Source: Bifidobacterium breve (lineage in GTDB: Bacteria > Actinomycetota > Thermoleophilia > Gaiellales > F1-60-MAGs149). Taken from it: a stretch of 44,222 nt of DNA. The stretch spans positions 1 to 44,222 of the forward strand of contig CAMAWJ010000002.1 in NCBI GenBank assembly GCA_945861955.1, in the 5' to 3' direction. Position 1 is the first letter of the stretch. The number at the start of each line of letters is the position of its first letter. The notes below the pieces were generated by a model, which ran no database searches, was not told the DNA's origin, and worked only from the letters and a program-made list of their open reading frames with translations. Below are positions 1 through 44,222 of this stretch, piece after piece. The position numbers and the translations under genes were made by a program.

Positions 1-656
1 GTTTCGATCATGGCGCGAATCTCGGCACCGGCCAGGACGTCTTCCTTACGCCACGTGCGATCGGCGTCGAGGGGCATAAACTCGATAAAGCGGACGATGT
101 ACGGCTTGCGCCGGGCGAGTTCGGCGAAGGCGATCACCTCGGGCTCGGTAAAGCCACGCATTGCGACGCAGTTGACCTTGATCGGGCGCAGCTCGGGATA
201 GCGCTCTGCTTCTTCAAGCCCTTCGAGGACACGGTCAAGCATGTCGCGTCGCGTAATCTCGGCAAAGCGCGAGTGGTCGAGGCTGTCGAGCGAGACGTTG
301 ATGCGACGAAGGCCGGCATCGACGAGTGGCCCGGCGAGCGTGCGCAACGCGACTCCGTTGGTCGTCAGGGCGAGGTCCTTGAGGCCTGGAACCTTGACGA
401 GGCGCTCGATCAGATCGGGGACGTCGCGGCGGACAAGCGGTTCGCCACCCGTCAGACGCACGTGGCTGACACCCATCGAGGCGAGAATCGTGGCAAGGCG
501 TTCGATCTCCTCAAACGACAAGACTTCCGTGCGTTGAAGCCATGGCAGTCCCTCCGCGGGCATGCAGTACTTGCAGCGGAAGTTGCAGCGGTCGGTGATC
601 GAGATGCGAACGCTCTCGATATGGCGGTCGAACGAATCGGTCAGCGGCGGGCGCAT
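1..656 (-). CDS. moaA: GTP 3',8-cyclase MoaA (molybdenum cofactor biosynthesis), C-terminally truncated by window edge
   Basis: Absent from the ORF track because it has no stop in the window. Start codon is CAT at 654..656. Translation MRPPLTDSFDRHIESVRISITDRCNFRCKYCMP...LTGGEPLVRRD... shows the radical-SAM CxxxCxxC cluster motif and a MoaA-type N-terminal half. Confidence 0.9.
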   Translation of the reverse strand, partial: MRPPLTDSFDRHIESVRISITDRCNFRCKYCMPAEGLPWLQRTEVLSFEEIERLATILASMGVSHVRLTGGEPLVRRDVPDLIERLVKVPGLKDLALTTNGVALRTLAGPLVDAGLRRINVSLDSLDHSRFAEITRRDMLDRVLEGLEEAERYPELRPIKVNCVAMRGFTEPEVIAFAELARRKPYIVRFIEFMPLDADRTWRKEDVLAGAEIRAMIE

Positions 657-681
657 CTGTTTAGTGTAGTGGCGCGACGGC

Positions 682-1239
682 CTACTGCCCAGCGAAGGGC
701 ACTCGTTCGACGTACCGCAGGTCGCGGGCGGGGTGGCCATTCTGCGGAAATCCGGCAATCCAGACTGCATCGACATGGGTCGCACAAACTGCTGATTCTG
801 CGTGTGTCCGAATCTTCTCGTGGACTGCGGCGTAGGTTGCAGCCTCCCCGCCGTAGGCCAGAGTCAGGTGCGGCACAAACGCATGGCGATGACAATCCTG
901 GTCGCAGGAGCAGAGGCTCGTACGAACGGACTGCAACTCTTTATTCCCCTGCTGAACGCCGAGCCAGGCCACTGGGCGGTTAGGCGAGGGAAACTCATCG
1001 AAACCTGCGCAGGTTACGGAGAAGGGTTTGATCGCCGCCGCGGCCTCCCGGATACGTTCGGCGAGTGCGGGTGCATCGCGGCGACCACGCAAGGGGGCGT
1101 AGAACAGGGTGATGTGTCCCGTGCGCGGATCTTGCACTCGGACATCGTCGTCATCCACATCGTCTGCGATTGACGACAACAGTTCGCGCGCCGAATCGAC
1201 GCGAATTACAACCCCCCAGTACCACCGGTGATGAGCCAC
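682..1239 (-). CDS. 2H phosphoesterase superfamily protein (LigT / 2'-5' RNA ligase-like)
   Basis: Two HxTx motifs (GHITLFY and VPHLTLAY) at the spacing typical of the 2H fold. The start is uncertain. The in-frame GTG at 1237..1239 avoids overlap with the upstream gene, whose stop is at 1242; the ORF track extends to ATG at 1293. Confidence 0.75.
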   Translation of the reverse strand: MAHHRWYWGVVIRVDSARELLSSIADDVDDDDVRVQDPRTGHITLFYAPLRGRRDAPALAERIREAAAAIKPFSVTCAGFDEFPSPNRPVAWLGVQQGNKELQSVRTSLCSCDQDCHRHAFVPHLTLAYGGEAATYAAVHEKIRTHAESAVCATHVDAVWIAGFPQNGHPARDLRYVERVPFAGQ

Positions 1240-1241
1240 CG

Positions 1242-2882
1242 TTAGTGCTTCGAACCGTCTTCCGGCGGTTCCTGCTCGGTGAACGGATCCCAATCGAGCG
1301 TTGCGTCGCCAACTGCTGGGGGGCGACTCGTGCCATCCATCGTGTCCTCGCCGTCATCGATCGCGGGTGGCGTGGGGAAGAGCTCTTCCGACGCTTCAGG
1401 TTCGCCGCTCGGCTCGTCGATCAGGCCCGTCGGTGCTGGCAGATCGAGCTCTTCGAAGGCCTGCTCTGGCTCGGGTTCTACAACGGGCTGCGCAGGTGGG
1501 GCCACGATCGGCGGCGTGGCCTCCGCGGGTGCGGCGACGTCTTCGAAGGCGGCGTCGGAGTCGGGGTCCCAGGCGCGCGTAGCCTCTTCTTCGGGTAGCG
1601 CGAGCTCGCCGTCCTGCGTGGGGACGATGCCGGAGGCCGTTGCGGGAGGGGTCGTCAGGTCGCTACTGGCCTCGTCTGCTGGGGGCTCTTCGTCACGCTC
1701 TGGACCATCGATGCCCCAGATTTGCTCGCCGTTGTAATCGAGGCCCGGTAGGTCGTCGGGGCTCCAGCCGTAGGCGCCATACCAGGATGGCGCGGCGGGC
1801 CAAGGGATCATGCGCGAGCCGACGTGCACGAGCGAAACTTCGGGAGCATCGCCGCGCTCGAGGGCGAGTCGGTTCTCGGGGCTGACGTAGACGGTGTTGA
1901 TCGTGCCGTCGGGCTTGCGTAGTTCGATTGCCTCGGTGCCAAGCCCGTGTTCGTGTGAAAAGAAGCAGAGGCCTGGGAAGCCGGGTGCGATGGCAGCGGG
2001 AGGCGCGTGGTCGGCCAGGCGGTATTCGACCCAGAGGATCTCCCACTCGACGGCGTCGAGTTCGCCGGCCACGGTGCGCAGTTCGCGGGGCGAGGTGAGT
2101 GCTGGCAGTGTGCGACGCAAGGCGAGTAGGCGAGCGCCAGCGGTCTGGAGGTGGTCGGCGGCTTCGGGATCGTCGGATTTTGGACCATCGCTCGTGGCGG
2201 TCTCGCCCGTGAGTGCCGTGTGGCGTGCGGCGAGGCTCTCGAGGCGGTCGAGGTGAAACTCGCGAGCGGTCCAGATAGAACCACCGCGGCGGCGGCGACG
2301 CTGCTCATTCGAACGTGCGCGGATACGGAGCACAACCAGCACGATGCTTCCGAGCAGCAAGGCAACCACAGCCCATTGCCACCATGGTCGACCACTGCTG
2401 CCACTGGTGCCTGGGTCATCCGCATTCTTGTTCGGTTTCGTGACGGCGGCTGCATAGCTCGTCAGCGCGCCAACCGGATCGGTGGCGGCAACCGCGCGTG
2501 TGTCGGCGACTGCCTTGTTGATGCGGTCTTGTGGGTAGCTGAGCGATGCTCCGCCGAGCTTGCCTTTGGTGATCAGGCCAACGGTGGCTTGCGGATCCTT
2601 GGCCTGGAGTGCCTGCGCGAGCAGTCGGGCAGAGCCCTTGGCGTTCGCAGCGCCAGCAATTGGCCTGGCGAGCACGACCAGGTAGAAGGAGGGGTTGGCG
2701 GCGGCGACGGCGGTGAGGGCTGCGATGTCTGGTTGCGGTGACACGCCGGGCTGCACAAAGGCGTGGCGTGCGGTCATCGCGGTGGCTACTTGGGCGGCGC
2801 TCAGCCGGGCGGCGGCCTGCGCGGACGCCGCGAAGATCGTCAGGGTCAGGATCAGCGCGAGGACTGGGATGAGACGACGCAT
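1242..2882 (-). CDS. Hypothetical membrane-anchored protein (signal peptide, one internal TM, acidic/Pro-rich tail)
   Basis: The ORF track gives 1242..2948. The likely start is M23 (CAT at 2880..2882), giving MRRLIPVLALILTLTIFAASAQA as a signal peptide. An internal TM WWQWAVVALLLGSIVLVVL is followed by RIRARSNEQRRRRR. The C-terminal ~150 aa are D/E/P-rich low complexity. No family recognised. Confidence 0.7.
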   Translation of the reverse strand: MRRLIPVLALILTLTIFAASAQAAARLSAAQVATAMTARHAFVQPGVSPQPDIAALTAVAAANPSFYLVVLARPIAGAANAKGSARLLAQALQAKDPQATVGLITKGKLGGASLSYPQDRINKAVADTRAVAATDPVGALTSYAAAVTKPNKNADDPGTSGSSGRPWWQWAVVALLLGSIVLVVLRIRARSNEQRRRRRGGSIWTAREFHLDRLESLAARHTALTGETATSDGPKSDDPEAADHLQTAGARLLALRRTLPALTSPRELRTVAGELDAVEWEILWVEYRLADHAPPAAIAPGFPGLCFFSHEHGLGTEAIELRKPDGTINTVYVSPENRLALERGDAPEVSLVHVGSRMIPWPAAPSWYGAYGWSPDDLPGLDYNGEQIWGIDGPERDEEPPADEASSDLTTPPATASGIVPTQDGELALPEEEATRAWDPDSDAAFEDVAAPAEATPPIVAPPAQPVVEPEPEQAFEELDLPAPTGLIDEPSGEPEASEELFPTPPAIDDGEDTMDGTSRPPAVGDATLDWDPFTEQEPPEDGSKH

Positions 2883-2958
2883 ACCGTGATGGTACTCGCT
2901 GGAGCGGCGGAGTGGGGTTTTCTGATTCGCCGGGATGTGAATCCTCATAAAAAGAAAA

Positions 2959-2988
2959 CTTGATATTCAGGCACTCAGGTAATAGAGT
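2959..2988 (+). promoter_or_regulatory. Candidate dnaK promoter (-35 TTGATA 2960..2965, 17-nt spacer, -10 TAGAGT 2983..2988) overlapped by a HAIR-like HspR operator CTTGATA-N7-ACTCAGG (2959..2979)
   Basis: Matches the HAIR consensus CTTGAGT-N7-ACTCAAG at 11 of 14 positions. It sits 82 nt upstream of the dnaK ATG, and hspR is encoded in the same cluster. The -35/-10 hexamers and spacing fit a housekeeping-sigma promoter. Confidence 0.45.
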
Positions 2989-3060
2989 GTGGTCACGCGC
3001 CACTTCTCGGCGCCTGCACTTCCATCCCCCTCATCCCATCTCCACGGAGGCTTATCCCTT

Positions 3061-4967
<1,907 letters not shown>

Positions 4968-4971
<4 letters not shown>

Positions 4972-5516
4972 GCGCCCATGACCCGGTAGATTCGGACCTC
5001 CCCGCCGAGAGCGGGGAGGATTCGATCGTGTCGAAGGCAGAGGCCGAGCTCGTCGAAGAAGAGCTCGATCCTCTGGCTCTGGCCGAACGTCAACGCGACG
5101 ACTACCTCGACCAGCTGCGACGACTTGCGGCCGAGTTCGACAACTACAAGAAGCGGATGGTCCGCGAGCACGAGGAACTGCGCGAGCGTGCAGCCGAGCG
5201 TCTCTTGCGCGACCTGCTGCCAGTTTTCGACGATCTCGGGCGTGCTCTGACGGCATTTGAGACGGCGGAGACTGAGGCGATCGCCGACGGCGTGGCGCTC
5301 GTTCATCGCGCACTCTGGACCTTGCTGGAGCGCGAAGGCGTGGCCGAGCTCGATCCGACCGGCGACATGTTTGATCCGCACCGTCACGAGGCGCTGCTTT
5401 CCCAGCCGGCCGATGCTCCGGAGGGCACCGTGCTCGAGGTGATTCAGAGAGGCTTCCTGCTCGGCGATCGTGTCTTGCGGCCTGCCCGCGTGGTGGTTGC
5501 CGGAGGCGAATCCTGA
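4968..5516 (+). CDS. grpE: Nucleotide exchange factor GrpE
   Basis: GrpE-type sequence ([14 protein letters not shown]-terminal beta domain [14 protein letters not shown]). The GTG start overlaps the dnaK stop (GTGA at 4968..4971). Confidence 0.93.
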
Positions 5517-5596
5517 GCCTGACCCCCGTCACGATCGCTGCAGCTCCGCTGGGCGGTGCCGAAAAGGTCATCACTGGCATCTTCTGGTGCGTCGTC

Positions 5597-6007
5597 TTGC
5601 TGGCCTGGATTGGCACCGGCGTCGGCGTCTCGAATGGCAATGCATTGCACGCCGTCGCGATGTTGTCGGCTGGGCTTCTGTTGGGCGCGATCGGTCTCTG
5701 GCTGCGCGTCACGCAACCCGTGGCGTATCGCTTCGACCGCGATGCGCTGGTGATTGAACGTCGGCGAGGTTCATTGCGGATTACCGGCCGGATCGAGCCG
5801 CATACCGACAAGGCACGGTTAGGGCTCCGGCTCGGCTCCGGTGGTCTCTATGGCTACCGCGGTCACTTCCGCGTCGCTGGCGGTGGCTGGACGCGGTCGT
5901 TTGTGACGGACGTGCGTCGCACCGTCCTGATTAAGGTCGGCCGCCGCCGAGTCGTGTTGTCCCCGATCGATCCTGCCGGTCTCGTAGAGGTCGTTCGCAA
6001 TGCGTGA
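5597..6007 (+). CDS. Small membrane protein, possible bacterial PH-domain (YdbS/DUF304-like) protein
   Basis: 136 aa. Hydrophobic N-terminus (ALHAVAMLSAGLLLGAIGLWL) followed by a ~90-aa soluble domain. TTG start at 5597; no canonical in-frame start lies further upstream. The stop overlaps the dnaJ start by 8 nt (ATGCGTGA at 6000..6007). The function call is weak. Confidence 0.6.
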   Translation: MLAWIGTGVGVSNGNALHAVAMLSAGLLLGAIGLWLRVTQPVAYRFDRDALVIERRRGSLRITGRIEPHTDKARLGLRLGSGGLYGYRGHFRVAGGGWTRSFVTDVRRTVLIKVGRRRVVLSPIDPAGLVEVVRNA

Positions 6008-7103
6008 TCTCTACGAGGTGCTTGAGGTACCGCGATCGGCAACTGCAGACGAGATCAAGAAGGCCTATCGCACGCTGGCACGCAAGCACCATCCCGACGC
6101 CAATCCTGACGATCCAAAAGCCGAAGAGCGCTTCAAGGAGATCTCCGCTGCGCACGACACCTTGTCCGACGTCGAGAAGCGCAAGGCGTACGACCAATTC
6201 GGAGCCTCGGGCGGCACCGGCGCACAGGGCTTCGACCCCAACGATTTTCGCGACTTCGCCCAAGACCGTGGCTTCGACATCTCCGACCTGTTTGGGGACC
6301 TCTTCGGCCGCCGTCGCGGTGGCGGTCCGAGCGCAGGTCGCGGCCGCCGTCCCGCTCGGCGTGGTGTCGATCTCGAGACACGCGTCACCCTCTCCTTCGA
6401 CGACGCGCTGCGTGGCGCCCGGGTGACGGTGCCGGTCGACAAGGACCTCAACTGTGCCGATTGTTCTGGCACGGGAGCAGCGGCAGGCACGTCGCGTACG
6501 ACGTGCCCCGACTGTGGTGGTTCTGGTGAGCGTCAGGTCAATCAGGGGTTCTTTGCGATCGCCGAGACCTGCATGCGTTGCGGTGGACAGGGCTCGATTG
6601 TTGAACGACCGTGTACCACGTGCAAGGGCTCTGGTCGCCAACGTCGGACCAAGCGCTACACCGTCAAGATCCCCGCTGGTATTGCCGATGCGTCGCGCAT
6701 TCGCGTGCGTGGCAAGGGTCTCGACGGAGAGAGTGGTGGGGCGCCGGGCGACCTCTGGGTTGTCGTGCAGGTGCTGCCCTCGGAACGGTTTACACGACGC
6801 GACAAGGACATCATCGTCGAGGTTCCCGTGACGTTCCCCGAGGCAGCGCTCGGAGCAGAGATCGATGTGCCAACACCGCTTGGCGAAAAGGTGCGCGTCA
6901 AGGTACCGGCAGGTTCCGTCGACGGCAAGATGCTGCGAGTACGAGGTCTTGGTGCACCTTCAACGAGCGGCGACGATGGCTCGTTGCTGGTTCGTCTCAA
7001 GTTGATCGTGCCCAGTGGACTCTCGACGCAGCAGACTGAGGCGCTCGAGAAGTTTGCAGCGCTCGACGGCGGGACAGATCCGCGGGCGGAGCTGTTTACG
7101 TGA
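6000..7103 (+). CDS. dnaJ: Co-chaperone DnaJ (Hsp40)
   Basis: J-domain with HPD (KHHPDANPDD), a Gly/Phe-rich linker, and four CxxCxGxG zinc-finger repeats (CADCSGTG, CPDCGGSG, CMRCGGQG, CTTCKGSG). Confidence 0.96.
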   Translation: MRDLYEVLEVPRSATADEIKKAYRTLARKHHPDANPDDPKAEERFKEISAAHDTLSDVEKRKAYDQFGASGGTGAQGFDPNDFRDFAQDRGFDISDLFGDLFGRRRGGGPSAGRGRRPARRGVDLETRVTLSFDDALRGARVTVPVDKDLNCADCSGTGAAAGTSRTTCPDCGGSGERQVNQGFFAIAETCMRCGGQGSIVERPCTTCKGSGRQRRTKRYTVKIPAGIADASRIRVRGKGLDGESGGAPGDLWVVVQVLPSERFTRRDKDIIVEVPVTFPEAALGAEIDVPTPLGEKVRVKVPAGSVDGKMLRVRGLGAPSTSGDDGSLLVRLKLIVPSGLSTQQTEALEKFAALDGGTDPRAELFT

Positions 7104-7507
7104 ACGAAGACACCCCCAAGTACATGATCGGCGTCGCCGCCGAGCTCGTCGGCATGCACCCCCAGACGCTACGGCTCTACGAAGCCCGAGGTCTGGTCCG
7201 ACCGCGCCGCACGGCCGGTGGTACCCGCCTCTATTCGGATGCCGAACTGATGCGCCTGCAGCGCATTACCGAGCTCGCATCGGGCCTTGGTCTCTCGCTC
7301 CAGGGCGTGGAGCACGTGCTCGCACTCGAAGATCGGGTGCACCAACTCGAGCAGCAGGTCGCCGACCTCGGAGCCGCCCTCGATGAGGCCGCGCGCGTGA
7401 TGCAGACTGAGGTCGAGAGCGTGCATCGCTCCTACCGACACGAGATCGTGCCGTACATCCCGCCGCCTGGCGCGGAGCTTGTCGTCCGTCGCCGGCGCAT
7501 GCGTTGA
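7100..7507 (+). CDS. hspR: MerR-family heat-shock repressor HspR
   Basis: MerR-type HTH (YMIGVAAELVGMHPQTLRLYEARGLVRPRRTAGGTRLYS). It lies directly after dnaJ with a GTGA start/stop overlap (7100..7103), as in actinobacterial dnaK operons. Confidence 0.9.
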   Translation: MNEDTPKYMIGVAAELVGMHPQTLRLYEARGLVRPRRTAGGTRLYSDAELMRLQRITELASGLGLSLQGVEHVLALEDRVHQLEQQVADLGAALDEAARVMQTEVESVHRSYRHEIVPYIPPPGAELVVRRRRMR

Positions 7508-7548
7508 ACCGCTTCCCGTAGCTGATACCGAACGGAGGAACCCCCACC

Positions 7549-10149
7549 ATGGATCCCACCAAACTGACCGTCAAAGCGCAGGAGGCACTCGGCACAGCAG
7601 CCGAGCGCGCCCGCGTCGCCGGTAATCCCGAACTGACTCCACTGCATCTCTTGGCGGGCCTGCTGGCCGAGCACGGCTCGGTCGCCGAGTCGCTCTTGCG
7701 CGGCGCCGGCGGCGACGTCGACACGCTGCGTCGCGAAACCGACGATGCGCTCGACAAGCTTCCGAGCATGAAGGGTGCTGCGACTTCGCCGCAGGCCTCA
7801 CTGGGGCTGCGCGAGACGCTCGAGCGTGCCACGAAGGAATCGCAGGAGATGGGTGACGACTACGTTGCGTCGGAGCACGTCCTGATCGCACTCGCCGAGC
7901 ATTCGGGCGCCGCGAAAGACATTTTGCGCCGCCAGAACGTGACGAAGACCGCGCTCCTGGGAGGTCTCAAGAACATTCGCGGTGGCAAGCGTGTGACCGA
8001 TCCCAACGCCGAAGACCTCTACGACGCGCTGCAGAAGTACGCCCGCGACCTAACGGCCGCGGCCGAGGCTGGCAAGGTCGATCCGGTGATCGGTCGTGAC
8101 GACGAGATTCGTCGAGTCGTCCAGGTCCTCTCGCGGCGTACGAAAAACAATCCGGTACTGATCGGCGAGCCAGGCGTTGGCAAGACCGCCATTGCCGAGG
8201 GCCTCGCCATGCGCATCGTTGCCGGCGACGTGCCGGAGAGTCTGCGCGGTCGCAAGATCTGGGCGCTCGACATGGGCGCGCTCCTGGCAGGAGCCAAGTT
8301 CCGCGGCGAGTTCGAGGAGCGACTCAAAGCCGTCTTGGGCGAGGTGACGGCGGCTGAGGGCCAGATCGTGCTGTTTATCGATGAGCTTCACACAGTCGTG
8401 GGCGCAGGTGCGGCCGAGGGTGCCGTCGACGCGGCCAACCTGCTCAAGCCGATGCTCGCGCGCGGCGAGCTACGCGCAATCGGCGCGACGACGATCGACG
8501 AGTACCGTAAGCACGTCGAAAAAGATGCTGCACTCGCCCGCCGCTTCCAGCCCGTGCTCGTGGGTGAGCCAAACGTGGAGGACGCGATCGGGATTCTGCG
8601 CGGACTCAAGGAGCGCTACGAAGTCCACCATGGCGTGCGCATTCAAGACAGTGCAATCGTGGCCGCTGCGATGCTTTCGGATCGCTACATTGCCGATCGC
8701 TTTCTGCCGGACAAGGCAATCGACCTGATCGACGAGGCCGCTAGTCGTCTGCGCATCGAGATCGATTCGCGCCCGACCGAGCTCGACGAGATCGAGCGGC
8801 GGATCGTGCGCATCGAGATTGAAGATGCGGCGCTCGCCAAGGAGAGTGACGTCGTCTCGGCCGAGCGGCGCGATGCCCTCGCCAGCGAGCTCGGTGGACT
8901 CCAAGAAATTGCCGACGAGATGCGTGGACGATGGGAACTCGAGAAGCGCCACATCGATTCGATCCGACGACTCAAGAGCATGATTGAGGACGTCAAGAAC
9001 GAGGCAGAGCGAGCAGAACGTGAGGCCGATCTGCAGCGCGCTGCGAAATTGACGTATGGCGACCTCCCGGCGTACGAGGCCGAACTGCTGGCCGAGACGG
9101 CGGCGCTTGACGAGGCGCAGAAGGATGGCTCGGTGCTCAAAGAAGAGGTCGACGAGGAAGATATCGCCGGAGTCGTTGGAGCCTGGACCGGAATTCCCGT
9201 CTCGCGCCTAATGGAAGGTGAGATGCAGAAGCTCGTGCAGCTCGAGGAGCGTCTCCACGAGCGCCTCGTCGGGCAGGAGGAGGCAATCTCTGCCGTCTCC
9301 GACGCAATCCGCCGCTCGCGTGCGGGGCTCGGCGATCCAGATCGACCGATCGGGTCGTTCCTGTTCCTTGGCCCGACCGGTGTCGGCAAGACCGAGCTCG
9401 CGAAGACGCTCGCCGAACTGCTCTTCGACGACGAAAAGTCGATGATTCGGATCGACATGTCGGAGTACATGGAACGCCACTCCGTCTCGCGCCTGGTCGG
9501 TGCGCCACCCGGCTACGTCGGCTACGACGAGGGTGGCCAATTGACTGAAGCGATTCGACGCCGCCCCTATTCCGTCGTCCTGCTCGACGAGATCGAGAAA
9601 GCACACGGTGACGTCTTCAACGTCTTGCTGCAGGTGCTCGATGACGGTCGCCTGACCGACGGCCAGGGACGCACCGTCGACTTTACGAACACGGTGCTGA
9701 TCATGACCTCGAATGCTGGGTCCGAGTTTGTACTCGGCGAGCTCTCCCACGACGAGATCCGCGATCGTGTCGAGGGTGTGCTGCGGCAGACCTTCCGACC
9801 AGAGTTCCTCAACCGCATCGACGAGACGGTGATCTTCCATCGCCTGACCGAAGTCGAGATCCGCAAGATCGTCGACCTGCAGGTCGAGCGTCTCGTACGC
9901 CGCGTTGAGTCTCGTCGTGTGGCTTTTGAGGTGACAGATGCTGCCAAGGATCTCTTGGCTCGCGAAGGCTACGATCCTACGTATGGCGCTCGACCGCTGA
10001 AGCGTGCAATCCAGCGCCTGCTGGAAAATCCGCTGGCGCTACGTCTGCTCGAGGGTGATATCGGCGATGGTGCCCGTGTGATTGCAGAAACCAGTGACAC
10101 CGATGACGGCATCGTCTTCACGATTGCGACTCCTCAGGAGGCTGTCTGA
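7549..10149 (+). CDS. clpB: ATP-dependent disaggregase ClpB
   Basis: 866 aa. Clp N-domain, two AAA+ modules (Walker A GEPGVGKT and GPTGVGKT) and a long coiled-coil middle domain. GGAGG at 7534..7538. Confidence 0.98.
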
Positions 10150-10151
10150 GC

Positions 10152-33222: not shown

Positions 33223-34071
33223 CTACTCCTCGCCCGTGACCTTCTTGATCCGCTCACGGTTGCGCTTGGCCTTCTCACGACGACGCTTGATGACTTCCTT
33301 GCGTCGCTCATTCTCTTTCGGCGACTCGTTGATCACGAGTCGGCCCGTCACATCGCCGTAGAGGTTGCGGAAGACGAGGGCCGCGACCGGCCAGACGATG
33401 ATCGTGGTGATGGCGAACGTGACTTGCTGCTGCAACAGCGACCCGAGCGGAGTCAGCAGGATGCCAAAGCCGACGGCCACCGCGGCAATCACGATCGCGA
33501 GTCCGAGCACACAGGCGTAGGTTCGCTTGAACCAGCGCACCGTCATCCGCACGCCTTGCCAGATCGAGCCAAATCCTCCCGCATCGCCCGAGGCCGCGAT
33601 AATTGGCGGGAAGGCAAGCAGCGGATAGAACACGACCGCAACGAAGACGAGTTGCCAGATCAGCAGCGTGCCCACAGCGACCGTGACGACACCAGTAATC
33701 AAGAGCGAACCAAGACGTCCACGGAGGCTTCCCACCACGAGCATCGTGGCGAGCGAGAGCACCATAAAGTTGCCAAGCGCGAACGCCGCCGCGTACATCA
33801 GCCCGGCCCACAATCCTGGCACCGCCGTGCCCGACACAATCACCTTGACGCCCAGCAGTGGCAGCGCGCTGACGGCTGCAATCAGCAGATAGCCACCGAA
33901 GTTGATGCCAAAGCGCCGAAAAGCGGCCTCGAAGTACGCGCCGACAGGATGCAGTGGCCGACCGGTCGGCCCGAGTGGCCCCTGCTCTTCCTCGACATCC
34001 GGTGCGTCAAGCTCGAGGTCCTGATCGTTGGCAGCGTCGGACGACGCAGAGCGGCGGCGGAACAATCCCAT
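33223..34071 (-). CDS. Hypothetical polytopic membrane protein (mirror copy)
   Basis: Exact reverse-complement copy of 10152..11000. Confidence 0.7.
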   Translation of the reverse strand: MGLFRRRSASSDAANDQDLELDAPDVEEEQGPLGPTGRPLHPVGAYFEAAFRRFGINFGGYLLIAAVSALPLLGVKVIVSGTAVPGLWAGLMYAAAFALGNFMVLSLATMLVVGSLRGRLGSLLITGVVTVAVGTLLIWQLVFVAVVFYPLLAFPPIIAASGDAGGFGSIWQGVRMTVRWFKRTYACVLGLAIVIAAVAVGFGILLTPLGSLLQQQVTFAITTIIVWPVAALVFRNLYGDVTGRLVINESPKENERRKEVIKRRREKAKRNRERIKKVTGEE

Positions 34072-34073
34072 GC

Positions 34074-36674
34074 TCAGACAGCCTCCTGAGGAGTCGCAAT
34101 CGTGAAGACGATGCCGTCATCGGTGTCACTGGTTTCTGCAATCACACGGGCACCATCGCCGATATCACCCTCGAGCAGACGTAGCGCCAGCGGATTTTCC
34201 AGCAGGCGCTGGATTGCACGCTTCAGCGGTCGAGCGCCATACGTAGGATCGTAGCCTTCGCGAGCCAAGAGATCCTTGGCAGCATCTGTCACCTCAAAAG
34301 CCACACGACGAGACTCAACGCGGCGTACGAGACGCTCGACCTGCAGGTCGACGATCTTGCGGATCTCGACTTCGGTCAGGCGATGGAAGATCACCGTCTC
34401 GTCGATGCGGTTGAGGAACTCTGGTCGGAAGGTCTGCCGCAGCACACCCTCGACACGATCGCGGATCTCGTCGTGGGAGAGCTCGCCGAGTACAAACTCG
34501 GACCCAGCATTCGAGGTCATGATCAGCACCGTGTTCGTAAAGTCGACGGTGCGTCCCTGGCCGTCGGTCAGGCGACCGTCATCGAGCACCTGCAGCAAGA
34601 CGTTGAAGACGTCACCGTGTGCTTTCTCGATCTCGTCGAGCAGGACGACGGAATAGGGGCGGCGTCGAATCGCTTCAGTCAATTGGCCACCCTCGTCGTA
34701 GCCGACGTAGCCGGGTGGCGCACCGACCAGGCGCGAGACGGAGTGGCGTTCCATGTACTCCGACATGTCGATCCGAATCATCGACTTTTCGTCGTCGAAG
34801 AGCAGTTCGGCGAGCGTCTTCGCGAGCTCGGTCTTGCCGACACCGGTCGGGCCAAGGAACAGGAACGACCCGATCGGTCGATCTGGATCGCCGAGCCCCG
34901 CACGCGAGCGGCGGATTGCGTCGGAGACGGCAGAGATTGCCTCCTCCTGCCCGACGAGGCGCTCGTGGAGACGCTCCTCGAGCTGCACGAGCTTCTGCAT
35001 CTCACCTTCCATTAGGCGCGAGACGGGAATTCCGGTCCAGGCTCCAACGACTCCGGCGATATCTTCCTCGTCGACCTCTTCTTTGAGCACCGAGCCATCC
35101 TTCTGCGCCTCGTCAAGCGCCGCCGTCTCGGCCAGCAGTTCGGCCTCGTACGCCGGGAGGTCGCCATACGTCAATTTCGCAGCGCGCTGCAGATCGGCCT
35201 CACGTTCTGCTCGCTCTGCCTCGTTCTTGACGTCCTCAATCATGCTCTTGAGTCGTCGGATCGAATCGATGTGGCGCTTCTCGAGTTCCCATCGTCCACG
35301 CATCTCGTCGGCAATTTCTTGGAGTCCACCGAGCTCGCTGGCGAGGGCATCGCGCCGCTCGGCCGAGACGACGTCACTCTCCTTGGCGAGCGCCGCATCT
35401 TCAATCTCGATGCGCACGATCCGCCGCTCGATCTCGTCGAGCTCGGTCGGGCGCGAATCGATCTCGATGCGCAGACGACTAGCGGCCTCGTCGATCAGGT
35501 CGATTGCCTTGTCCGGCAGAAAGCGATCGGCAATGTAGCGATCCGAAAGCATCGCAGCGGCCACGATTGCACTGTCTTGAATGCGCACGCCATGGTGGAC
35601 TTCGTAGCGCTCCTTGAGTCCGCGCAGAATCCCGATCGCGTCCTCCACGTTTGGCTCACCCACGAGCACGGGCTGGAAGCGGCGGGCGAGTGCAGCATCT
35701 TTTTCGACGTGCTTACGGTACTCGTCGATCGTCGTCGCGCCGATTGCGCGTAGCTCGCCGCGCGCGAGCATCGGCTTGAGCAGGTTGGCCGCGTCGACGG
35801 CACCCTCGGCCGCACCTGCGCCCACGACTGTGTGAAGCTCATCGATAAACAGCACGATCTGGCCCTCAGCCGCCGTCACCTCGCCCAAGACGGCTTTGAG
35901 TCGCTCCTCGAACTCGCCGCGGAACTTGGCTCCTGCCAGGAGCGCGCCCATGTCGAGCGCCCAGATCTTGCGACCGCGCAGACTCTCCGGCACGTCGCCG
36001 GCAACGATGCGCATGGCGAGGCCCTCGGCAATGGCGGTCTTGCCAACGCCTGGCTCGCCGATCAGTACCGGATTGTTTTTCGTACGCCGCGAGAGGACCT
36101 GGACGACTCGACGAATCTCGTCGTCACGACCGATCACCGGATCGACCTTGCCAGCCTCGGCCGCGGCCGTTAGGTCGCGGGCGTACTTCTGCAGCGCGTC
36201 GTAGAGGTCTTCGGCGTTGGGATCGGTCACACGCTTGCCACCGCGAATGTTCTTGAGACCTCCCAGGAGCGCGGTCTTCGTCACGTTCTGGCGGCGCAAA
36301 ATGTCTTTCGCGGCGCCCGAATGCTCGGCGAGTGCGATCAGGACGTGCTCCGACGCAACGTAGTCGTCACCCATCTCCTGCGATTCCTTCGTGGCACGCT
36401 CGAGCGTCTCGCGCAGCCCCAGTGAGGCCTGCGGCGAAGTCGCAGCACCCTTCATGCTCGGAAGCTTGTCGAGCGCATCGTCGGTTTCGCGACGCAGCGT
36501 GTCGACGTCGCCGCCGGCGCCGCGCAAGAGCGACTCGGCGACCGAGCCGTGCTCGGCCAGCAGGCCCGCCAAGAGATGCAGTGGAGTCAGTTCGGGATTA
36601 CCGGCGACGCGGGCGCGCTCGGCTGCTGTGCCGAGTGCCTCCTGCGCTTTGACGGTCAGTTTGGTGGGATCCAT
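34074..36674 (-). CDS. clpB: ClpB disaggregase (mirror copy)
   Basis: Exact reverse-complement copy of 7549..10149. Confidence 0.98.
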
Positions 36675-36715
36675 GGTGGGGGTTCCTCCGTTCGGTATCA
36701 GCTACGGGAAGCGGT

Positions 36716-37123
36716 TCAACGCATGCGCCGGCGACGGACGACAAGCTCCGCGCCAGGCGGCGGGATGTACGGCACGATCTCGTGTCGGTAGGAGCGATGC
36801 ACGCTCTCGACCTCAGTCTGCATCACGCGCGCGGCCTCATCGAGGGCGGCTCCGAGGTCGGCGACCTGCTGCTCGAGTTGGTGCACCCGATCTTCGAGTG
36901 CGAGCACGTGCTCCACGCCCTGGAGCGAGAGACCAAGGCCCGATGCGAGCTCGGTAATGCGCTGCAGGCGCATCAGTTCGGCATCCGAATAGAGGCGGGT
37001 ACCACCGGCCGTGCGGCGCGGTCGGACCAGACCTCGGGCTTCGTAGAGCCGTAGCGTCTGGGGGTGCATGCCGACGAGCTCGGCGGCGACGCCGATCATG
37101 TACTTGGGGGTGTCTTCGTTCAC
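36716..37123 (-). CDS. hspR: HspR heat-shock repressor (mirror copy)
   Basis: Exact reverse-complement copy of 7100..7507. Confidence 0.9.
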   Translation of the reverse strand: MNEDTPKYMIGVAAELVGMHPQTLRLYEARGLVRPRRTAGGTRLYSDAELMRLQRITELASGLGLSLQGVEHVLALEDRVHQLEQQVADLGAALDEAARVMQTEVESVHRSYRHEIVPYIPPPGAELVVRRRRMR

Positions 37124-38223
37124 GTAAACAGCTCCGCCCGCGGATCTGTCCCGCCGTCGAGCGCTGCAAACTTCTCGAGCGCCTCAGTCTGCTGCGTCGA
37201 GAGTCCACTGGGCACGATCAACTTGAGACGAACCAGCAACGAGCCATCGTCGCCGCTCGTTGAAGGTGCACCAAGACCTCGTACTCGCAGCATCTTGCCG
37301 TCGACGGAACCTGCCGGTACCTTGACGCGCACCTTTTCGCCAAGCGGTGTTGGCACATCGATCTCTGCTCCGAGCGCTGCCTCGGGGAACGTCACGGGAA
37401 CCTCGACGATGATGTCCTTGTCGCGTCGTGTAAACCGTTCCGAGGGCAGCACCTGCACGACAACCCAGAGGTCGCCCGGCGCCCCACCACTCTCTCCGTC
37501 GAGACCCTTGCCACGCACGCGAATGCGCGACGCATCGGCAATACCAGCGGGGATCTTGACGGTGTAGCGCTTGGTCCGACGTTGGCGACCAGAGCCCTTG
37601 CACGTGGTACACGGTCGTTCAACAATCGAGCCCTGTCCACCGCAACGCATGCAGGTCTCGGCGATCGCAAAGAACCCCTGATTGACCTGACGCTCACCAG
37701 AACCACCACAGTCGGGGCACGTCGTACGCGACGTGCCTGCCGCTGCTCCCGTGCCAGAACAATCGGCACAGTTGAGGTCCTTGTCGACCGGCACCGTCAC
37801 CCGGGCGCCACGCAGCGCGTCGTCGAAGGAGAGGGTGACGCGTGTCTCGAGATCGACACCACGCCGAGCGGGACGGCGGCCGCGACCTGCGCTCGGACCG
37901 CCACCGCGACGGCGGCCGAAGAGGTCCCCAAACAGGTCGGAGATGTCGAAGCCACGGTCTTGGGCGAAGTCGCGAAAATCGTTGGGGTCGAAGCCCTGTG
38001 CGCCGGTGCCGCCCGAGGCTCCGAATTGGTCGTACGCCTTGCGCTTCTCGACGTCGGACAAGGTGTCGTGCGCAGCGGAGATCTCCTTGAAGCGCTCTTC
38101 GGCTTTTGGATCGTCAGGATTGGCGTCGGGATGGTGCTTGCGTGCCAGCGTGCGATAGGCCTTCTTGATCTCGTCTGCAGTTGCCGATCGCGGTACCTCA
38201 AGCACCTCGTAGAGATCACGCAT
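37120..38223 (-). CDS. dnaJ: DnaJ (mirror copy)
   Basis: Exact reverse-complement copy of 6000..7103. Confidence 0.96.
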   Translation of the reverse strand: MRDLYEVLEVPRSATADEIKKAYRTLARKHHPDANPDDPKAEERFKEISAAHDTLSDVEKRKAYDQFGASGGTGAQGFDPNDFRDFAQDRGFDISDLFGDLFGRRRGGGPSAGRGRRPARRGVDLETRVTLSFDDALRGARVTVPVDKDLNCADCSGTGAAAGTSRTTCPDCGGSGERQVNQGFFAIAETCMRCGGQGSIVERPCTTCKGSGRQRRTKRYTVKIPAGIADASRIRVRGKGLDGESGGAPGDLWVVVQVLPSERFTRRDKDIIVEVPVTFPEAALGAEIDVPTPLGEKVRVKVPAGSVDGKMLRVRGLGAPSTSGDDGSLLVRLKLIVPSGLSTQQTEALEKFAALDGGTDPRAELFT

Positions 38224-38626
38224 TGCGAACGACCTCTACGAGACCGGCAGGATCGATCGGGGACAACACGACTCGGCGGCGGCCGACCTTAATCAGGACG
38301 GTGCGACGCACGTCCGTCACAAACGACCGCGTCCAGCCACCGCCAGCGACGCGGAAGTGACCGCGGTAGCCATAGAGACCACCGGAGCCGAGCCGGAGCC
38401 CTAACCGTGCCTTGTCGGTATGCGGCTCGATCCGGCCGGTAATCCGCAATGAACCTCGCCGACGTTCAATCACCAGCGCATCGCGGTCGAAGCGATACGC
38501 CACGGGTTGCGTGACGCGCAGCCAGAGACCGATCGCGCCCAACAGAAGCCCAGCCGACAACATCGCGACGGCGTGCAATGCATTGCCATTCGAGACGCCG
38601 ACGCCGGTGCCAATCCAGGCCAGCAA
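38216..38626 (-). CDS. Small membrane / possible bacterial PH-domain protein (mirror copy)
   Basis: Exact reverse-complement copy of 5597..6007. Confidence 0.6.
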   Translation of the reverse strand: MLAWIGTGVGVSNGNALHAVAMLSAGLLLGAIGLWLRVTQPVAYRFDRDALVIERRRGSLRITGRIEPHTDKARLGLRLGSGGLYGYRGHFRVAGGGWTRSFVTDVRRTVLIKVGRRRVVLSPIDPAGLVEVVRNA

Positions 38627-38706
38627 GACGACGCACCAGAAGATGCCAGTGATGACCTTTTCGGCACCGCCCAGCGGAGCTGCAGCGATCGTGACGGGGG
38701 TCAGGC

Positions 38707-39251
38707 TCAGGATTCGCCTCCGGCAACCACCACGCGGGCAGGCCGCAAGACACGATCGCCGAGCAGGAAGCCTCTCTGAATCACCTCGAGCACGGTGCCC
38801 TCCGGAGCATCGGCCGGCTGGGAAAGCAGCGCCTCGTGACGGTGCGGATCAAACATGTCGCCGGTCGGATCGAGCTCGGCCACGCCTTCGCGCTCCAGCA
38901 AGGTCCAGAGTGCGCGATGAACGAGCGCCACGCCGTCGGCGATCGCCTCAGTCTCCGCCGTCTCAAATGCCGTCAGAGCACGCCCGAGATCGTCGAAAAC
39001 TGGCAGCAGGTCGCGCAAGAGACGCTCGGCTGCACGCTCGCGCAGTTCCTCGTGCTCGCGGACCATCCGCTTCTTGTAGTTGTCGAACTCGGCCGCAAGT
39101 CGTCGCAGCTGGTCGAGGTAGTCGTCGCGTTGACGTTCGGCCAGAGCCAGAGGATCGAGCTCTTCTTCGACGAGCTCGGCCTCTGCCTTCGACACGATCG
39201 AATCCTCCCCGCTCTCGGCGGGGAGGTCCGAATCTACCGGGTCATGGGCGC

Positions 39252-39255
<4 letters not shown>
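38707..39255 (-). CDS. grpE: GrpE (mirror copy)
   Basis: Exact reverse-complement copy of 4968..5516. Confidence 0.93.
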
Positions 39256-41162
<1,907 letters not shown>

Positions 41163-41234
41163 AAGGGATAAGCCTCCGTGGAGATGGGATGAGGGGGATG
41201 GAAGTGCAGGCGCCGAGAAGTGGCGCGTGACCAC

Positions 41235-41264
41235 ACTCTATTACCTGAGTGCCTGAATATCAAG
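41235..41264 (-). promoter_or_regulatory. Candidate dnaK promoter with HAIR-like operator (mirror copy)
   Basis: Exact reverse complement of 2959..2988. On the plus strand: ACTCTA at 41235..41240, CCTGAGT at 41244..41250, TATCAAG at 41258..41264. Confidence 0.45.
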
Positions 41265-41340
41265 TTTTCTTTTTATGAGGATTCACATCCCGGCGAATCA
41301 GAAAACCCCACTCCGCCGCTCCAGCGAGTACCATCACGGT

Positions 41341-42981
41341 ATGCGTCGTCTCATCCCAGTCCTCGCGCTGATCCTGACCCTGACGATCTTCGCGGCGTCC
41401 GCGCAGGCCGCCGCCCGGCTGAGCGCCGCCCAAGTAGCCACCGCGATGACCGCACGCCACGCCTTTGTGCAGCCCGGCGTGTCACCGCAACCAGACATCG
41501 CAGCCCTCACCGCCGTCGCCGCCGCCAACCCCTCCTTCTACCTGGTCGTGCTCGCCAGGCCAATTGCTGGCGCTGCGAACGCCAAGGGCTCTGCCCGACT
41601 GCTCGCGCAGGCACTCCAGGCCAAGGATCCGCAAGCCACCGTTGGCCTGATCACCAAAGGCAAGCTCGGCGGAGCATCGCTCAGCTACCCACAAGACCGC
41701 ATCAACAAGGCAGTCGCCGACACACGCGCGGTTGCCGCCACCGATCCGGTTGGCGCGCTGACGAGCTATGCAGCCGCCGTCACGAAACCGAACAAGAATG
41801 CGGATGACCCAGGCACCAGTGGCAGCAGTGGTCGACCATGGTGGCAATGGGCTGTGGTTGCCTTGCTGCTCGGAAGCATCGTGCTGGTTGTGCTCCGTAT
41901 CCGCGCACGTTCGAATGAGCAGCGTCGCCGCCGCCGCGGTGGTTCTATCTGGACCGCTCGCGAGTTTCACCTCGACCGCCTCGAGAGCCTCGCCGCACGC
42001 CACACGGCACTCACGGGCGAGACCGCCACGAGCGATGGTCCAAAATCCGACGATCCCGAAGCCGCCGACCACCTCCAGACCGCTGGCGCTCGCCTACTCG
42101 CCTTGCGTCGCACACTGCCAGCACTCACCTCGCCCCGCGAACTGCGCACCGTGGCCGGCGAACTCGACGCCGTCGAGTGGGAGATCCTCTGGGTCGAATA
42201 CCGCCTGGCCGACCACGCGCCTCCCGCTGCCATCGCACCCGGCTTCCCAGGCCTCTGCTTCTTTTCACACGAACACGGGCTTGGCACCGAGGCAATCGAA
42301 CTACGCAAGCCCGACGGCACGATCAACACCGTCTACGTCAGCCCCGAGAACCGACTCGCCCTCGAGCGCGGCGATGCTCCCGAAGTTTCGCTCGTGCACG
42401 TCGGCTCGCGCATGATCCCTTGGCCCGCCGCGCCATCCTGGTATGGCGCCTACGGCTGGAGCCCCGACGACCTACCGGGCCTCGATTACAACGGCGAGCA
42501 AATCTGGGGCATCGATGGTCCAGAGCGTGACGAAGAGCCCCCAGCAGACGAGGCCAGTAGCGACCTGACGACCCCTCCCGCAACGGCCTCCGGCATCGTC
42601 CCCACGCAGGACGGCGAGCTCGCGCTACCCGAAGAAGAGGCTACGCGCGCCTGGGACCCCGACTCCGACGCCGCCTTCGAAGACGTCGCCGCACCCGCGG
42701 AGGCCACGCCGCCGATCGTGGCCCCACCTGCGCAGCCCGTTGTAGAACCCGAGCCAGAGCAGGCCTTCGAAGAGCTCGATCTGCCAGCACCGACGGGCCT
42801 GATCGACGAGCCGAGCGGCGAACCTGAAGCGTCGGAAGAGCTCTTCCCCACGCCACCCGCGATCGATGACGGCGAGGACACGATGGATGGCACGAGTCGC
42901 CCCCCAGCAGTTGGCGACGCAACGCTCGATTGGGATCCGTTCACCGAGCAGGAACCGCCGGAAGACGGTTCGAAGCACTAA
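41341..42981 (+). CDS. Hypothetical membrane-anchored protein (mirror copy)
   Basis: Exact reverse-complement copy of 1242..2882. ATG at 41341; the ORF track starts at 41275. Confidence 0.7.
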   Translation: MRRLIPVLALILTLTIFAASAQAAARLSAAQVATAMTARHAFVQPGVSPQPDIAALTAVAAANPSFYLVVLARPIAGAANAKGSARLLAQALQAKDPQATVGLITKGKLGGASLSYPQDRINKAVADTRAVAATDPVGALTSYAAAVTKPNKNADDPGTSGSSGRPWWQWAVVALLLGSIVLVVLRIRARSNEQRRRRRGGSIWTAREFHLDRLESLAARHTALTGETATSDGPKSDDPEAADHLQTAGARLLALRRTLPALTSPRELRTVAGELDAVEWEILWVEYRLADHAPPAAIAPGFPGLCFFSHEHGLGTEAIELRKPDGTINTVYVSPENRLALERGDAPEVSLVHVGSRMIPWPAAPSWYGAYGWSPDDLPGLDYNGEQIWGIDGPERDEEPPADEASSDLTTPPATASGIVPTQDGELALPEEEATRAWDPDSDAAFEDVAAPAEATPPIVAPPAQPVVEPEPEQAFEELDLPAPTGLIDEPSGEPEASEELFPTPPAIDDGEDTMDGTSRPPAVGDATLDWDPFTEQEPPEDGSKH

Positions 42982-42983
42982 CG

Positions 42984-43541
42984 GTGGCTCATCACCGGTG
43001 GTACTGGGGGGTTGTAATTCGCGTCGATTCGGCGCGCGAACTGTTGTCGTCAATCGCAGACGATGTGGATGACGACGATGTCCGAGTGCAAGATCCGCGC
43101 ACGGGACACATCACCCTGTTCTACGCCCCCTTGCGTGGTCGCCGCGATGCACCCGCACTCGCCGAACGTATCCGGGAGGCCGCGGCGGCGATCAAACCCT
43201 TCTCCGTAACCTGCGCAGGTTTCGATGAGTTTCCCTCGCCTAACCGCCCAGTGGCCTGGCTCGGCGTTCAGCAGGGGAATAAAGAGTTGCAGTCCGTTCG
43301 TACGAGCCTCTGCTCCTGCGACCAGGATTGTCATCGCCATGCGTTTGTGCCGCACCTGACTCTGGCCTACGGCGGGGAGGCTGCAACCTACGCCGCAGTC
43401 CACGAGAAGATTCGGACACACGCAGAATCAGCAGTTTGTGCGACCCATGTCGATGCAGTCTGGATTGCCGGATTTCCGCAGAATGGCCACCCCGCCCGCG
43501 ACCTGCGGTACGTCGAACGAGTGCCCTTCGCTGGGCAGTAG
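42984..43541 (+). CDS. 2H phosphoesterase superfamily protein (mirror copy)
   Basis: Exact reverse-complement copy of 682..1239. GTG at 42984; the ORF track starts at ATG 42930. Confidence 0.75.
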   Translation: MAHHRWYWGVVIRVDSARELLSSIADDVDDDDVRVQDPRTGHITLFYAPLRGRRDAPALAERIREAAAAIKPFSVTCAGFDEFPSPNRPVAWLGVQQGNKELQSVRTSLCSCDQDCHRHAFVPHLTLAYGGEAATYAAVHEKIRTHAESAVCATHVDAVWIAGFPQNGHPARDLRYVERVPFAGQ

Positions 43542-43566
43542 GCCGTCGCGCCACTACACTAAACAG

Positions 43567-44222
43567 ATGCGCCCGCCGCTGACCGATTCGTTCGACCGCC
43601 ATATCGAGAGCGTTCGCATCTCGATCACCGACCGCTGCAACTTCCGCTGCAAGTACTGCATGCCCGCGGAGGGACTGCCATGGCTTCAACGCACGGAAGT
43701 CTTGTCGTTTGAGGAGATCGAACGCCTTGCCACGATTCTCGCCTCGATGGGTGTCAGCCACGTGCGTCTGACGGGTGGCGAACCGCTTGTCCGCCGCGAC
43801 GTCCCCGATCTGATCGAGCGCCTCGTCAAGGTTCCAGGCCTCAAGGACCTCGCCCTGACGACCAACGGAGTCGCGTTGCGCACGCTCGCCGGGCCACTCG
43901 TCGATGCCGGCCTTCGTCGCATCAACGTCTCGCTCGACAGCCTCGACCACTCGCGCTTTGCCGAGATTACGCGACGCGACATGCTTGACCGTGTCCTCGA
44001 AGGGCTTGAAGAAGCAGAGCGCTATCCCGAGCTGCGCCCGATCAAGGTCAACTGCGTCGCAATGCGTGGCTTTACCGAGCCCGAGGTGATCGCCTTCGCC
44101 GAACTCGCCCGGCGCAAGCCGTACATCGTCCGCTTTATCGAGTTTATGCCCCTCGACGCCGATCGCACGTGGCGTAAGGAAGACGTCCTGGCCGGTGCCG
44201 AGATTCGCGCCATGATCGAAAC
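43567..44222 (+). CDS. moaA: MoaA, truncated by window edge (mirror copy)
   Basis: Exact reverse-complement copy of 1..656. ATG at 43567, open to the end of the window. Confidence 0.9.
   Translation, partial: MRPPLTDSFDRHIESVRISITDRCNFRCKYCMPAEGLPWLQRTEVLSFEEIERLATILASMGVSHVRLTGGEPLVRRDVPDLIERLVKVPGLKDLALTTNGVALRTLAGPLVDAGLRRINVSLDSLDHSRFAEITRRDMLDRVLEGLEEAERYPELRPIKVNCVAMRGFTEPEVIAFAELARRKPYIVRFIEFMPLDADRTWRKEDVLAGAEIRAMIE

Follow-up and report, generated by a model that had tools for sequence, protein, structure and literature searches.

A perfectly mirrored 44-kb contig from a freshwater Gaiellales bacterium is very probably an assembly fold-back at a native 56-nt palindrome

Assemblies of M. 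bovis isolates (PMC9455707) and of cyanobacterial SAGs (bioRxiv 10.1101/2023.06.06.543983) have yielded palindromic contigs that were described as artefacts of assembly, and Rahman & Medvedev proved that unsafe unitigs occur at coverage gaps beside repeats and observed them in SPAdes and MEGAHIT (bioRxiv 10.1101/2022.01.20.477068). Contigs that fold back in a de Bruijn graph are exact mirrors, with genes doubled in inverse order and with identical ends, and they turn upon a short native inverted repeat that is no longer than k; in each of these respects they resemble the DNA analysed here (a stretch of 44,222 bases, hereafter the window), which differs from known fold-back contigs in being unusually long (2 x 22 kb) and in having a pivot that could be placed to the base via native contigs. 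Inverted chimeric reads, arising in whole-genome amplification or from missed hairpin adapters in long-read data, likewise duplicate a locus head to head around a pivot that can fold back, but they have unequal arms and read errors, whereas the arms of the window are exactly equal and identical and its sibling contigs come from short-read MEGAHIT assemblies. The hairpin telomeres made by protelomerases (Borrelia ResT, Agrobacterium TelA and phage N15 TelN) are resolved at perfect palindromes some tens of bp long, and a sequence read round such a hairpin is also a spacer-less fold-back; they differ from the palindrome in the window, which in many assemblies is internal and joined on either side to unique sequence. 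The terminal inverted repeats (TIRs) of Streptomyces-type linear replicons lie at opposite ends of a unique core and go with terminal-protein genes, an arrangement that the window does not have.

A base-by-base comparison over the full length found 0 mismatches between the window and its reverse complement (A = T = 7981, G = C = 14130), bearing out the original prediction of a spacer-less perfect palindrome of 2 x 22,111 nt, and the mirror axis was confirmed between 22111 and 22112 (...GGGGTCCCCC/GGGGGACCCC...), without a unique loop. Self-reverse-complementarity of this exactness cannot have arisen by chance, and the total lack of divergence between the arms is what would be expected of a fold-back artefact. 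The symmetry means that the label of copy may be given to either arm. Each arm carries 19 genes (from profile matches and gene calls on sibling contigs), all of them duplicated as had been claimed, in the order moaA (truncated), ligT-like, a 568-aa hypothetical, dnaK, grpE, a bPH_5 protein, dnaJ, hspR, clpB, a 282-aa hypothetical, an xdh-like Mo-hydroxylase, pth, rplY/ctc, a 258-aa hypothetical, two sulfatases, prs, glmU and, innermost, bcp. Because the window is symmetric, moaA is cut at the identical base at both of its ends, which also agrees with the earlier description. The arm had no match in Rfam at the gathering threshold, and a single tRNA-Gly call by ARAGORN (20910-21000) is probably false because it spans 91 nt and falls within glmU.

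Coordinates of the features of the window and of its central palindrome
Feature	Position	Strand	Description
Arm 1	1..22111		Real chromosomal segment of a freshwater Gaiellales/Thermoleophilia bacterium, moaA' to bcp
Arm 2	22112..44222		Exact reverse complement of arm 1 (0 mismatches)
moaA, cut by window end	3..740	-	Radical_SAM (3.3e-30) and start of Mob_synth_C
moaA mirror copy	43483-44220	+	
bcp/PrxQ-type peroxiredoxin, innermost gene of arm 1	21407..21874	-	Peroxiredoxin family matches
bcp mirror copy	22349-22816	+	
Strain-variable G+C-rich insert, ~170 nt	21970..22139		Includes four degenerate GGGGTCWGACCCC motifs as well as the palindrome
Native spacer-less 56-nt perfect palindrome, fold-back pivot	22084..22139		28-nt arms CAGGGTTGTTGGGGGGTTGGGGTCCCCC/GGGGGACCCCAACCCCCCAACAACCCTG

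The original prediction had proposed looking for another contig in which bcp is joined to a different upstream neighbour, and such contigs were found. In freshwater Gaiellales/Thermoleophilia genomes a 56-nt palindrome lies between divergent genes for bcp and a YtcJ-type amidohydrolase, and the native order is glmU-bcp, an intergenic region of about 240 nt, the palindrome, 13 nt and the start of the amidohydrolase gene. The centre of this native palindrome coincides exactly with the axis of the window, supporting the route that had been offered under the default explanation of an artefact, in which the traversal of the graph reverses at an inverted repeat. The junction of bcp, palindrome and amidohydrolase is present in seven distinct contigs (L001/L187, L002/L188, L003, L006, L008, L182 and L183; 8 further similar places belong to the L001/L187 type), which come from strains 92-98% identical to the window, the closest of the joined contigs reaching 98%. 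In L182 and L183 the palindrome itself is identical, with bcp on one flank and the amidohydrolase on the other, and the 200 nt before the axis are 100% identical to window positions 21912-22111; past the palindrome these contigs continue as CTACAACCCACCCATG... into the amidohydrolase, as against TCTAAGGGGTCTGACCC... in the window. The versions of the palindrome in the other five are slightly imperfect. The contig of the L001/L187 type is a 95.6-kb scaffold in which the site is internal, and a 115-kb contig from a long-read MAG (L012) runs uninterrupted across the locus. This long-read MAG and L011, the two closest species representatives in the scan of GTDB by which the lineage was identified, have bcp and the amidohydrolase adjacent without the palindrome. 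An identical Bcp protein was found in 116 collection blocks, where its divergent neighbour is an amidohydrolase. Judged by these native contigs, arm 2 would stand, past 22139, in place of the native run into the amidohydrolase gene; the innermost 2 x 28 nt are genuine, and only the sequence outside them, on one side, would be false.

The hairpin is a site at which assemblies break, as independent contigs from both sides end there, some with poly-G strings. At least 7 other contigs stop inside it, from the bcp side (L004, which is the same as L172, L005, L007 and L171) and from the amidohydrolase side (L181, L189 and L190), and the terminal strings of L171 and L172 are poly-G and error-like. 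While identity to other assemblies was 92-98%, the independent MEGAHIT contigs L171, L172 and L174 were 99.8-99.99% identical to the window, and all of the contigs found at 99.8% identity or more (these three and L173) stop at or before the hairpin. Look-ups by exact protein, GlmU, DnaK and three amidohydrolase variants did not find a contig of at least 99.8% identity that crosses into the amidohydrolase. In the JGI metagenome collection the exact hairpin pattern gave 0 matches and the best match to the Bcp protein was 52% identical, so that neither scan found a close relative of the lineage there. The outer end of the window is likewise a break: the MEGAHIT contig ERZ27280223:k141_806009 (L174), from another sample, corresponds to window positions 1-8331 with 1 mismatch and starts at the identical first base, so that this end is a reproducible break in the graph and not the end of a molecule. 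From the symmetry and the start of that contig, both ends of the window lie at the same graph end, as they should in a fold-back artefact. The k141_ names of sibling contigs indicate ordinary short-read MEGAHIT assemblies and give no sign of MDA.

We therefore consider it very probable that the window is a fold-back contig from a short-read metagenome assembly, without a counterpart structure in cells. In the mechanism we propose, when k does not exceed the length of the palindrome, its two arms would collapse onto one node that is linked to itself in reverse orientation, and the outer end of this node would branch into the bcp flank and the amidohydrolase flank. If the k-mers joining the far arm to the amidohydrolase flank were missing or pruned, which is plausible because reads degrade in a very stable G+C-rich hairpin, the sole path left would run from the bcp flank through the arm to the reverse complement of the arm and on to the reverse complement of the bcp flank. 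As this path would be unbranched, a perfect palindrome would be emitted as a single contig, both ends of which would halt at one graph end, here within moaA. MEGAHIT and other assemblers that use several k values would pass contigs made at small k into the graphs of larger k, and a false junction may for this reason persist to the final k (141, if this applies here). We infer both which assembler built the window and which lapse of coverage made the turn.

A toy de Bruijn unitig walk was run on the native sequence of L183. When k was 21-57 and coverage was missing over 150 nt past the far arm, the walk produced a unitig of 2 x 1945 nt that was perfectly palindromic, had identical ends and is absent from the genome; with full coverage over the same range of k it stopped inside the palindrome, and at k of 61 or more it read through. 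In this model, then, the graph mechanism alone is sufficient to yield a palindromic contig. The model places the ends of contigs within the hairpin at offsets of about k minus 29, and those observed (-12, -8, +11, +17 and +25) fit only loosely.

The same pivot, a very stable 28-bp G+C-rich stem, is a typical site of fold-back priming, and a chimera made in the library would also be centred on it. During amplification by PCR or MDA, a growing strand whose end lies in the palindrome could fold back and prime itself; the molecules so formed would be real, would have bcp-side sequence to either side and would then be assembled faithfully, so that the artefact would be one of the wet laboratory. 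Whole-genome amplification is well documented to give palindromic chimeras (PMC6218980, PMC13265396). We regard this as very unlikely, since chimeric molecules have unequal arms and an assembly built from them would stop at different bases on its two sides, whereas the outer end base of the window is the start of an independent contig, the sibling names show no sign of MDA, and the graph mechanism needs no such molecules. An origin in the cell, seeded by the short palindrome, would mean an inverted duplication or a molecule that is joined head to head or capped by a hairpin. It could have come about through break-induced fold-back replication, as with the rDNA palindromes of Tetrahymena and the inverted duplications that palindromes induce in E. 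coli, or the sequence could be that of a protelomerase-type hairpin telomere read round its tip. Giant palindromes are known to be seeded by short inverted repeats, and one such repeat does lie at the centre of the window, but this is common to the artefact and does not discriminate. The pivot is also a perfect palindrome of a size near that of known telomere-resolution sites (telRL of N15 is about 56 bp), and the lack of a contig of at least 99.8% identity that enters the amidohydrolase would fit a strain in which the two are not joined. Against this, the same palindrome and flanks are internal and joined to the amidohydrolase in L182, L183 and scaffolds of up to 95.6 kb, whereas the physical end of a replicon should never be joined to other unique sequence. 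The amidohydrolase-side contigs merely break at the hairpin, with no mirror fold-back among them, none of the 19 genes of the window is a protelomerase or terminal protein, genes that are essential and single-copy lie in the arms, the ends of the arms fall at a break in the graph, and contigs ending in the hairpin bear signatures of sequencing error. An in-vivo structure of any of these kinds is thus highly improbable. The narrower proposal that in this exact strain the palindrome truly seeded an inverted duplication of 2 x 22 kb or larger, hairpin-capped or head-to-head, through a break beside it or a telomere-resolvase-like cleavage, we hold to be just as hard to credit; if it were true, the contig would be a real molecule present at appreciable frequency in a natural freshwater Gaiellales population.

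Actinomycetota do include linear replicons with long TIRs, Streptomyces among them, and if a linear actinobacterial replicon had two identical 22-kb TIRs that were brought together by scaffolding or forced circularisation, a mirror sequence of this form would result. We consider this the most improbable of the readings: the arms have no unique core between them, the junction site is internal and contiguous in related genomes including the 115-kb long-read contig, and no tpg/tap-like genes were found among the 19 in the window. The outer end, moreover, should face the unique core, yet it is a contig break within moaA that is common to another contig. Both the hairpin telomere and the abutted TIRs, which the original prediction had kept beside an artefact, are contradicted by the internal position of the site in long contigs.

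Read as a fold-back contig, the 44-kb palindrome has little biological importance. Since the assembler would have turned at the hairpin and written the same 22 kb twice, there would be no real duplication or chromosome end here, and second copies of dnaK, clpB, glmU, prs, pth and rplY very probably do not exist in the cell, while the real half, of 22.1 kb, can be used as ordinary chromosome sequence. Mirror contigs matter in practice because they double single-copy marker genes and so inflate estimates of contamination and duplication in MAGs, create false paralogues in pangenomes and may be mistaken for telomeres, TIRs or amplifications; a test for self-reverse-complementarity, which takes one line of code, removes them.

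One concrete class of sequence at which short-read assemblies break or go astray in this lineage is that of spacer-less G+C-rich palindromes of about 56 nt within REP-like inserts. The region of 211 nt around the palindrome is predicted to fold at -74.7 kcal/mol (z = -8.5) into a long G+C-rich stem. The insert that contains the palindrome was found in the L001, L006 and L183 types and is absent from the two GTDB representatives L011 and L012 and from L184, relatives without it having about 9 nt at the same place. Its G+C-rich, hairpin-forming character, its varying presence between strains and its recurring motif liken it, from the sequence alone, to REP/MITE-like intergenic repeats, from which it differs in that only one full copy was found in the sequence available. 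The insert motif was counted 10 times against 0.08 expected, and the motif AAGGGGTCWGACCCCTT also recurs in other intergenic regions.

Comparison of the whole window with its own reverse complement gave 0 mismatches in 44,222 bases, with equal counts of A and T and of G and C, and the symmetry axis lies between 22111 and 22112 with no loop (GGGGTCCCCC on the left running directly into GGGGGACCCC on the right). Gene calls on the window and on sibling contigs found 19 genes per arm, and so the original prediction of a perfect, spacer-less palindrome duplicating 19 genes was confirmed in full as a description. The 44-kb palindrome is, nevertheless, not a real genomic feature; it is almost certainly an artefact of some kind and very probably one produced by the assembler.

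Independent contigs of the window's lineage were gathered by exact-protein look-ups. A search for bcp (the peroxiredoxin gene innermost in each arm) beside a different upstream neighbour, proposed in the original prediction, was successful, as contigs from other assemblies pair it divergently with a gene for a 532-aa YtcJ-type amidohydrolase (Amidohydro_3), with no second bcp adjoining. Compared base by base, this native intergenic region was seen to harbour a 56-nt perfect palindrome with no spacer (CAGGGTTGTTGGGGGGTTGGGGTCCCCC directly followed by GGGGGACCCCAACCCCCCAACAACCCTG), the centre of which is exactly the window axis. Two contigs, L183 (ERZ27280192 k141_196459) and L182 (GCA_947445755.1), carry this palindrome letter for letter, and over 200 nt on the bcp side they match window positions 21912-22111 at 100% identity, but past the last palindrome base they continue (CTACAACCCACCCATG...) into the amidohydrolase gene, where the window instead gives the reverse complement of its bcp side. 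In five further contigs the amidohydrolase gene is likewise joined to a variant of the palindrome, one arm of which has an indel or substitutions. As native contigs run from the palindrome into the amidohydrolase gene, the window is native from 1 to 22139, with a mirror image standing in for the true neighbour from 22140 onward.

Features of the window and of the contigs compared with it
Feature	Position	Remarks
moaA	cut at window end	each arm; Radical_SAM and start of Mob_synth_C
LigT-like phosphoesterase gene		each arm
568-aa hypothetical protein gene		each arm
dnaK, grpE, bPH_5 protein gene, dnaJ, hspR, clpB		each arm
282-aa hypothetical protein gene		each arm
Xanthine-dehydrogenase-like molybdoenzyme subunit gene		each arm
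pth, rplY/ctc		each arm
258-aa hypothetical protein gene		each arm
Two paralogous sulfatase genes	15575-17185, 17292-18953 (-)	each arm
prs, glmU, bcp		each arm
G+C-rich insert, ~170 nt	21970-22139	mirror copy on other arm
AAGGGGTCWGACCCCTT	11003-11033 (mirror 33190-33220)	31-nt hairpin right after stop codon of 282-aa ORF, between convergent genes
AAGGGGTCWGACCCCTT	L001 2190-2480	at least three copies, then conserved CGTCGCAT tail; 520-nt intergenic region
Contig L005, bcp side	ends 11 nt beyond palindrome centre	
Contig L004 (=L172), bcp side	ends 17 nt beyond palindrome centre	
Contig L171, bcp side	ends 25 nt beyond palindrome centre	
Contig L007, bcp side	ends 12 nt before palindrome centre	
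Contigs L001/L187, L002/L188, L003, L006, L008	bcp/amidohydrolase junction	imperfect palindrome; L001/L187 is a 95.6-kb scaffold (and eight similar places not shown)

This junction is a hot spot for variation between strains. Two contigs (L009 and L010) have a gene for a 510-aa Flg_new-repeat protein upstream of bcp, replacing the amidohydrolase gene, and in three others (L179, L180 and L186) unrelated sequence lies upstream of the amidohydrolase gene, beginning directly after GTAGCA, which is also the point where the ~170-nt insert starts in strains carrying it.

Contigs from other samples break at the hairpin, four of them stopping inside it on the bcp side, while on the amidohydrolase side three (L181, L189 and L190) and one record without DNA stop 5-12 nt before the centre. 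Two of the bcp-side contigs, L171 and L172, match the window at 99.8% identity and end in poly-G-rich strings such as GGGTGGGGGGGGGGTGGGGGCCCCC (L171 1-30 and L172 1-20, approximately window 22112-22136), which resemble errors of sequencing in the stem and suggest that base-calling or coverage collapses there. Folded as single-stranded DNA, the axis region is very stable (-74.7 kcal/mol over 211 nt; z = -8.5) and forms an uninterrupted stem of 26-28 bp.

A minimal bidirected de Bruijn unitig walk was carried out on the native sequence of L183. With k = 21-57 and complete k-mer coverage the bcp-side unitig halted within the palindrome, which matches the broken contigs of other samples. When the k-mers of the first 150 nt past the far arm were removed, the same values of k gave a perfectly palindromic unitig of 2 x 1945 nt, which is not in the genome, has one genomic base at both its ends and has the topology of the window; at k of at least 61 the walk read through with complete coverage and stopped with the gap. 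As contigs from earlier rounds enter the later graphs of a multi-k assembler, a junction made at small k could persist to a final k of 141. The fold-back in the walk corresponds to the "unsafe unitig" situation as it applies to an inverted repeat; Rahman & Medvedev proved that situation and also observed it in SPAdes and MEGAHIT output (bioRxiv 10.1101/2022.01.20.477068). Palindromic contigs with exactly mirrored halves have been reported, and discarded as assembly artefacts, from M. bovis isolate assemblies (PMC9455707) and from cyanobacterial single-cell assemblies (bioRxiv 10.1101/2023.06.06.543983).

At the outer ends, L174 (ERZ27280223 k141_806009), a MEGAHIT contig of 8,331 nt assembled independently from another sample, differs from window 1-8331 by one mismatch, its position 1 being window position 1 (mirror 44222), inside moaA. 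Since it starts at the window's first base, the window end is a place where the assembly graph reproducibly ends or branches and not the end of a molecule, and we suggest that the window derives from a sibling MEGAHIT-type assembly. Something breaks the graph reproducibly at this point, for example a repeat or a branch between strain variants.

An artefact was the default reading of the original prediction, and the native palindrome at the axis and the toy walk support it specifically in the form of a turn-round in the assembly graph. A snap-back chimera made in the wet lab at the axis hairpin is a possible source, although two arms ending at one base are not naturally expected of it, and that shared end base is also the start of another contig. 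A hairpin telomere, likewise proposed originally, or a genuine inverted duplication with the 56-nt palindrome as its seed could appeal to the native junction of the exact strain not having been found, as the strains that showed the junction are all 92-98% identical to the window and every contig of at least 99.8% identity breaks at the hairpin. Both are, however, contradicted by the internal position of the same palindrome in long contigs, by the sequencing-error signatures at contig ends in the hairpin and by the fact that a mirror fold-back was not seen on the amidohydrolase side; nor was any protelomerase or terminal-protein gene found among the window's 19 genes per arm. Two abutted terminal inverted repeats, the remaining proposal, are excluded because the unique core is absent and the junction lies at an internal chromosomal site. 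A real structure in cells, of any kind, is extremely improbable, and the value of the mirror contig is mainly as a quality-control warning.

With the assembler's turn-round set aside, the genuine content of the window is ordinary chromosome with a small G+C-rich insert of modest interest. Gene order is of actinobacterial type (dnaK-grpE-dnaJ-hspR; glmU-prs...rplY-pth) and the nearest species representatives in GTDB are MAGs from freshwater that carry the label Gaiellales or Thermoleophilia; among them, L012, a long-read MAG contig of 115.5 kb, has 94.5% identity to the window over 10.6 kb and L011 has 90%. A Bcp protein identical to that of the window was found in 116 blocks of the assembly collection; the assemblies seen among these are lake and freshwater metagenomes. 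Two tandem sulfatase paralogues, ~75% identical in DNA, are sited between prs and rplY and are an unusual insertion in the otherwise conserved glmU-prs-rplY-pth block. ARAGORN called a 91-nt tRNA-Gly(TCC) at 20910-21000 (-) within the glmU coding region, probably a false positive.

The ~170-nt insert, between bcp and the amidohydrolase gene, contains the 56-nt palindrome along with four degenerate copies of the motif GGGGTCWGACCCC, which matches the window 10 times where 0.08 matches are expected. It is present in L001, L006, L182 and L183 and absent from L011, L012 and L184, which have ~9 nt in the same place. Its core motif, in the palindromic form AAGGGGTCWGACCCCTT, was found again in other intergenic regions, and these copies look like a candidate dispersed REP-like family in the lineage; the insert and motif together resemble a candidate REP- or MITE-like repeat family, and the insert may itself be mobile. 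The L001 scaffold also has, at 2040-2140 in a GntR/acyl-CoA dehydrogenase intergenic region, a 20-nt unit (CACCAACATCCTCCGCGCGG-like) repeated about five times in tandem.
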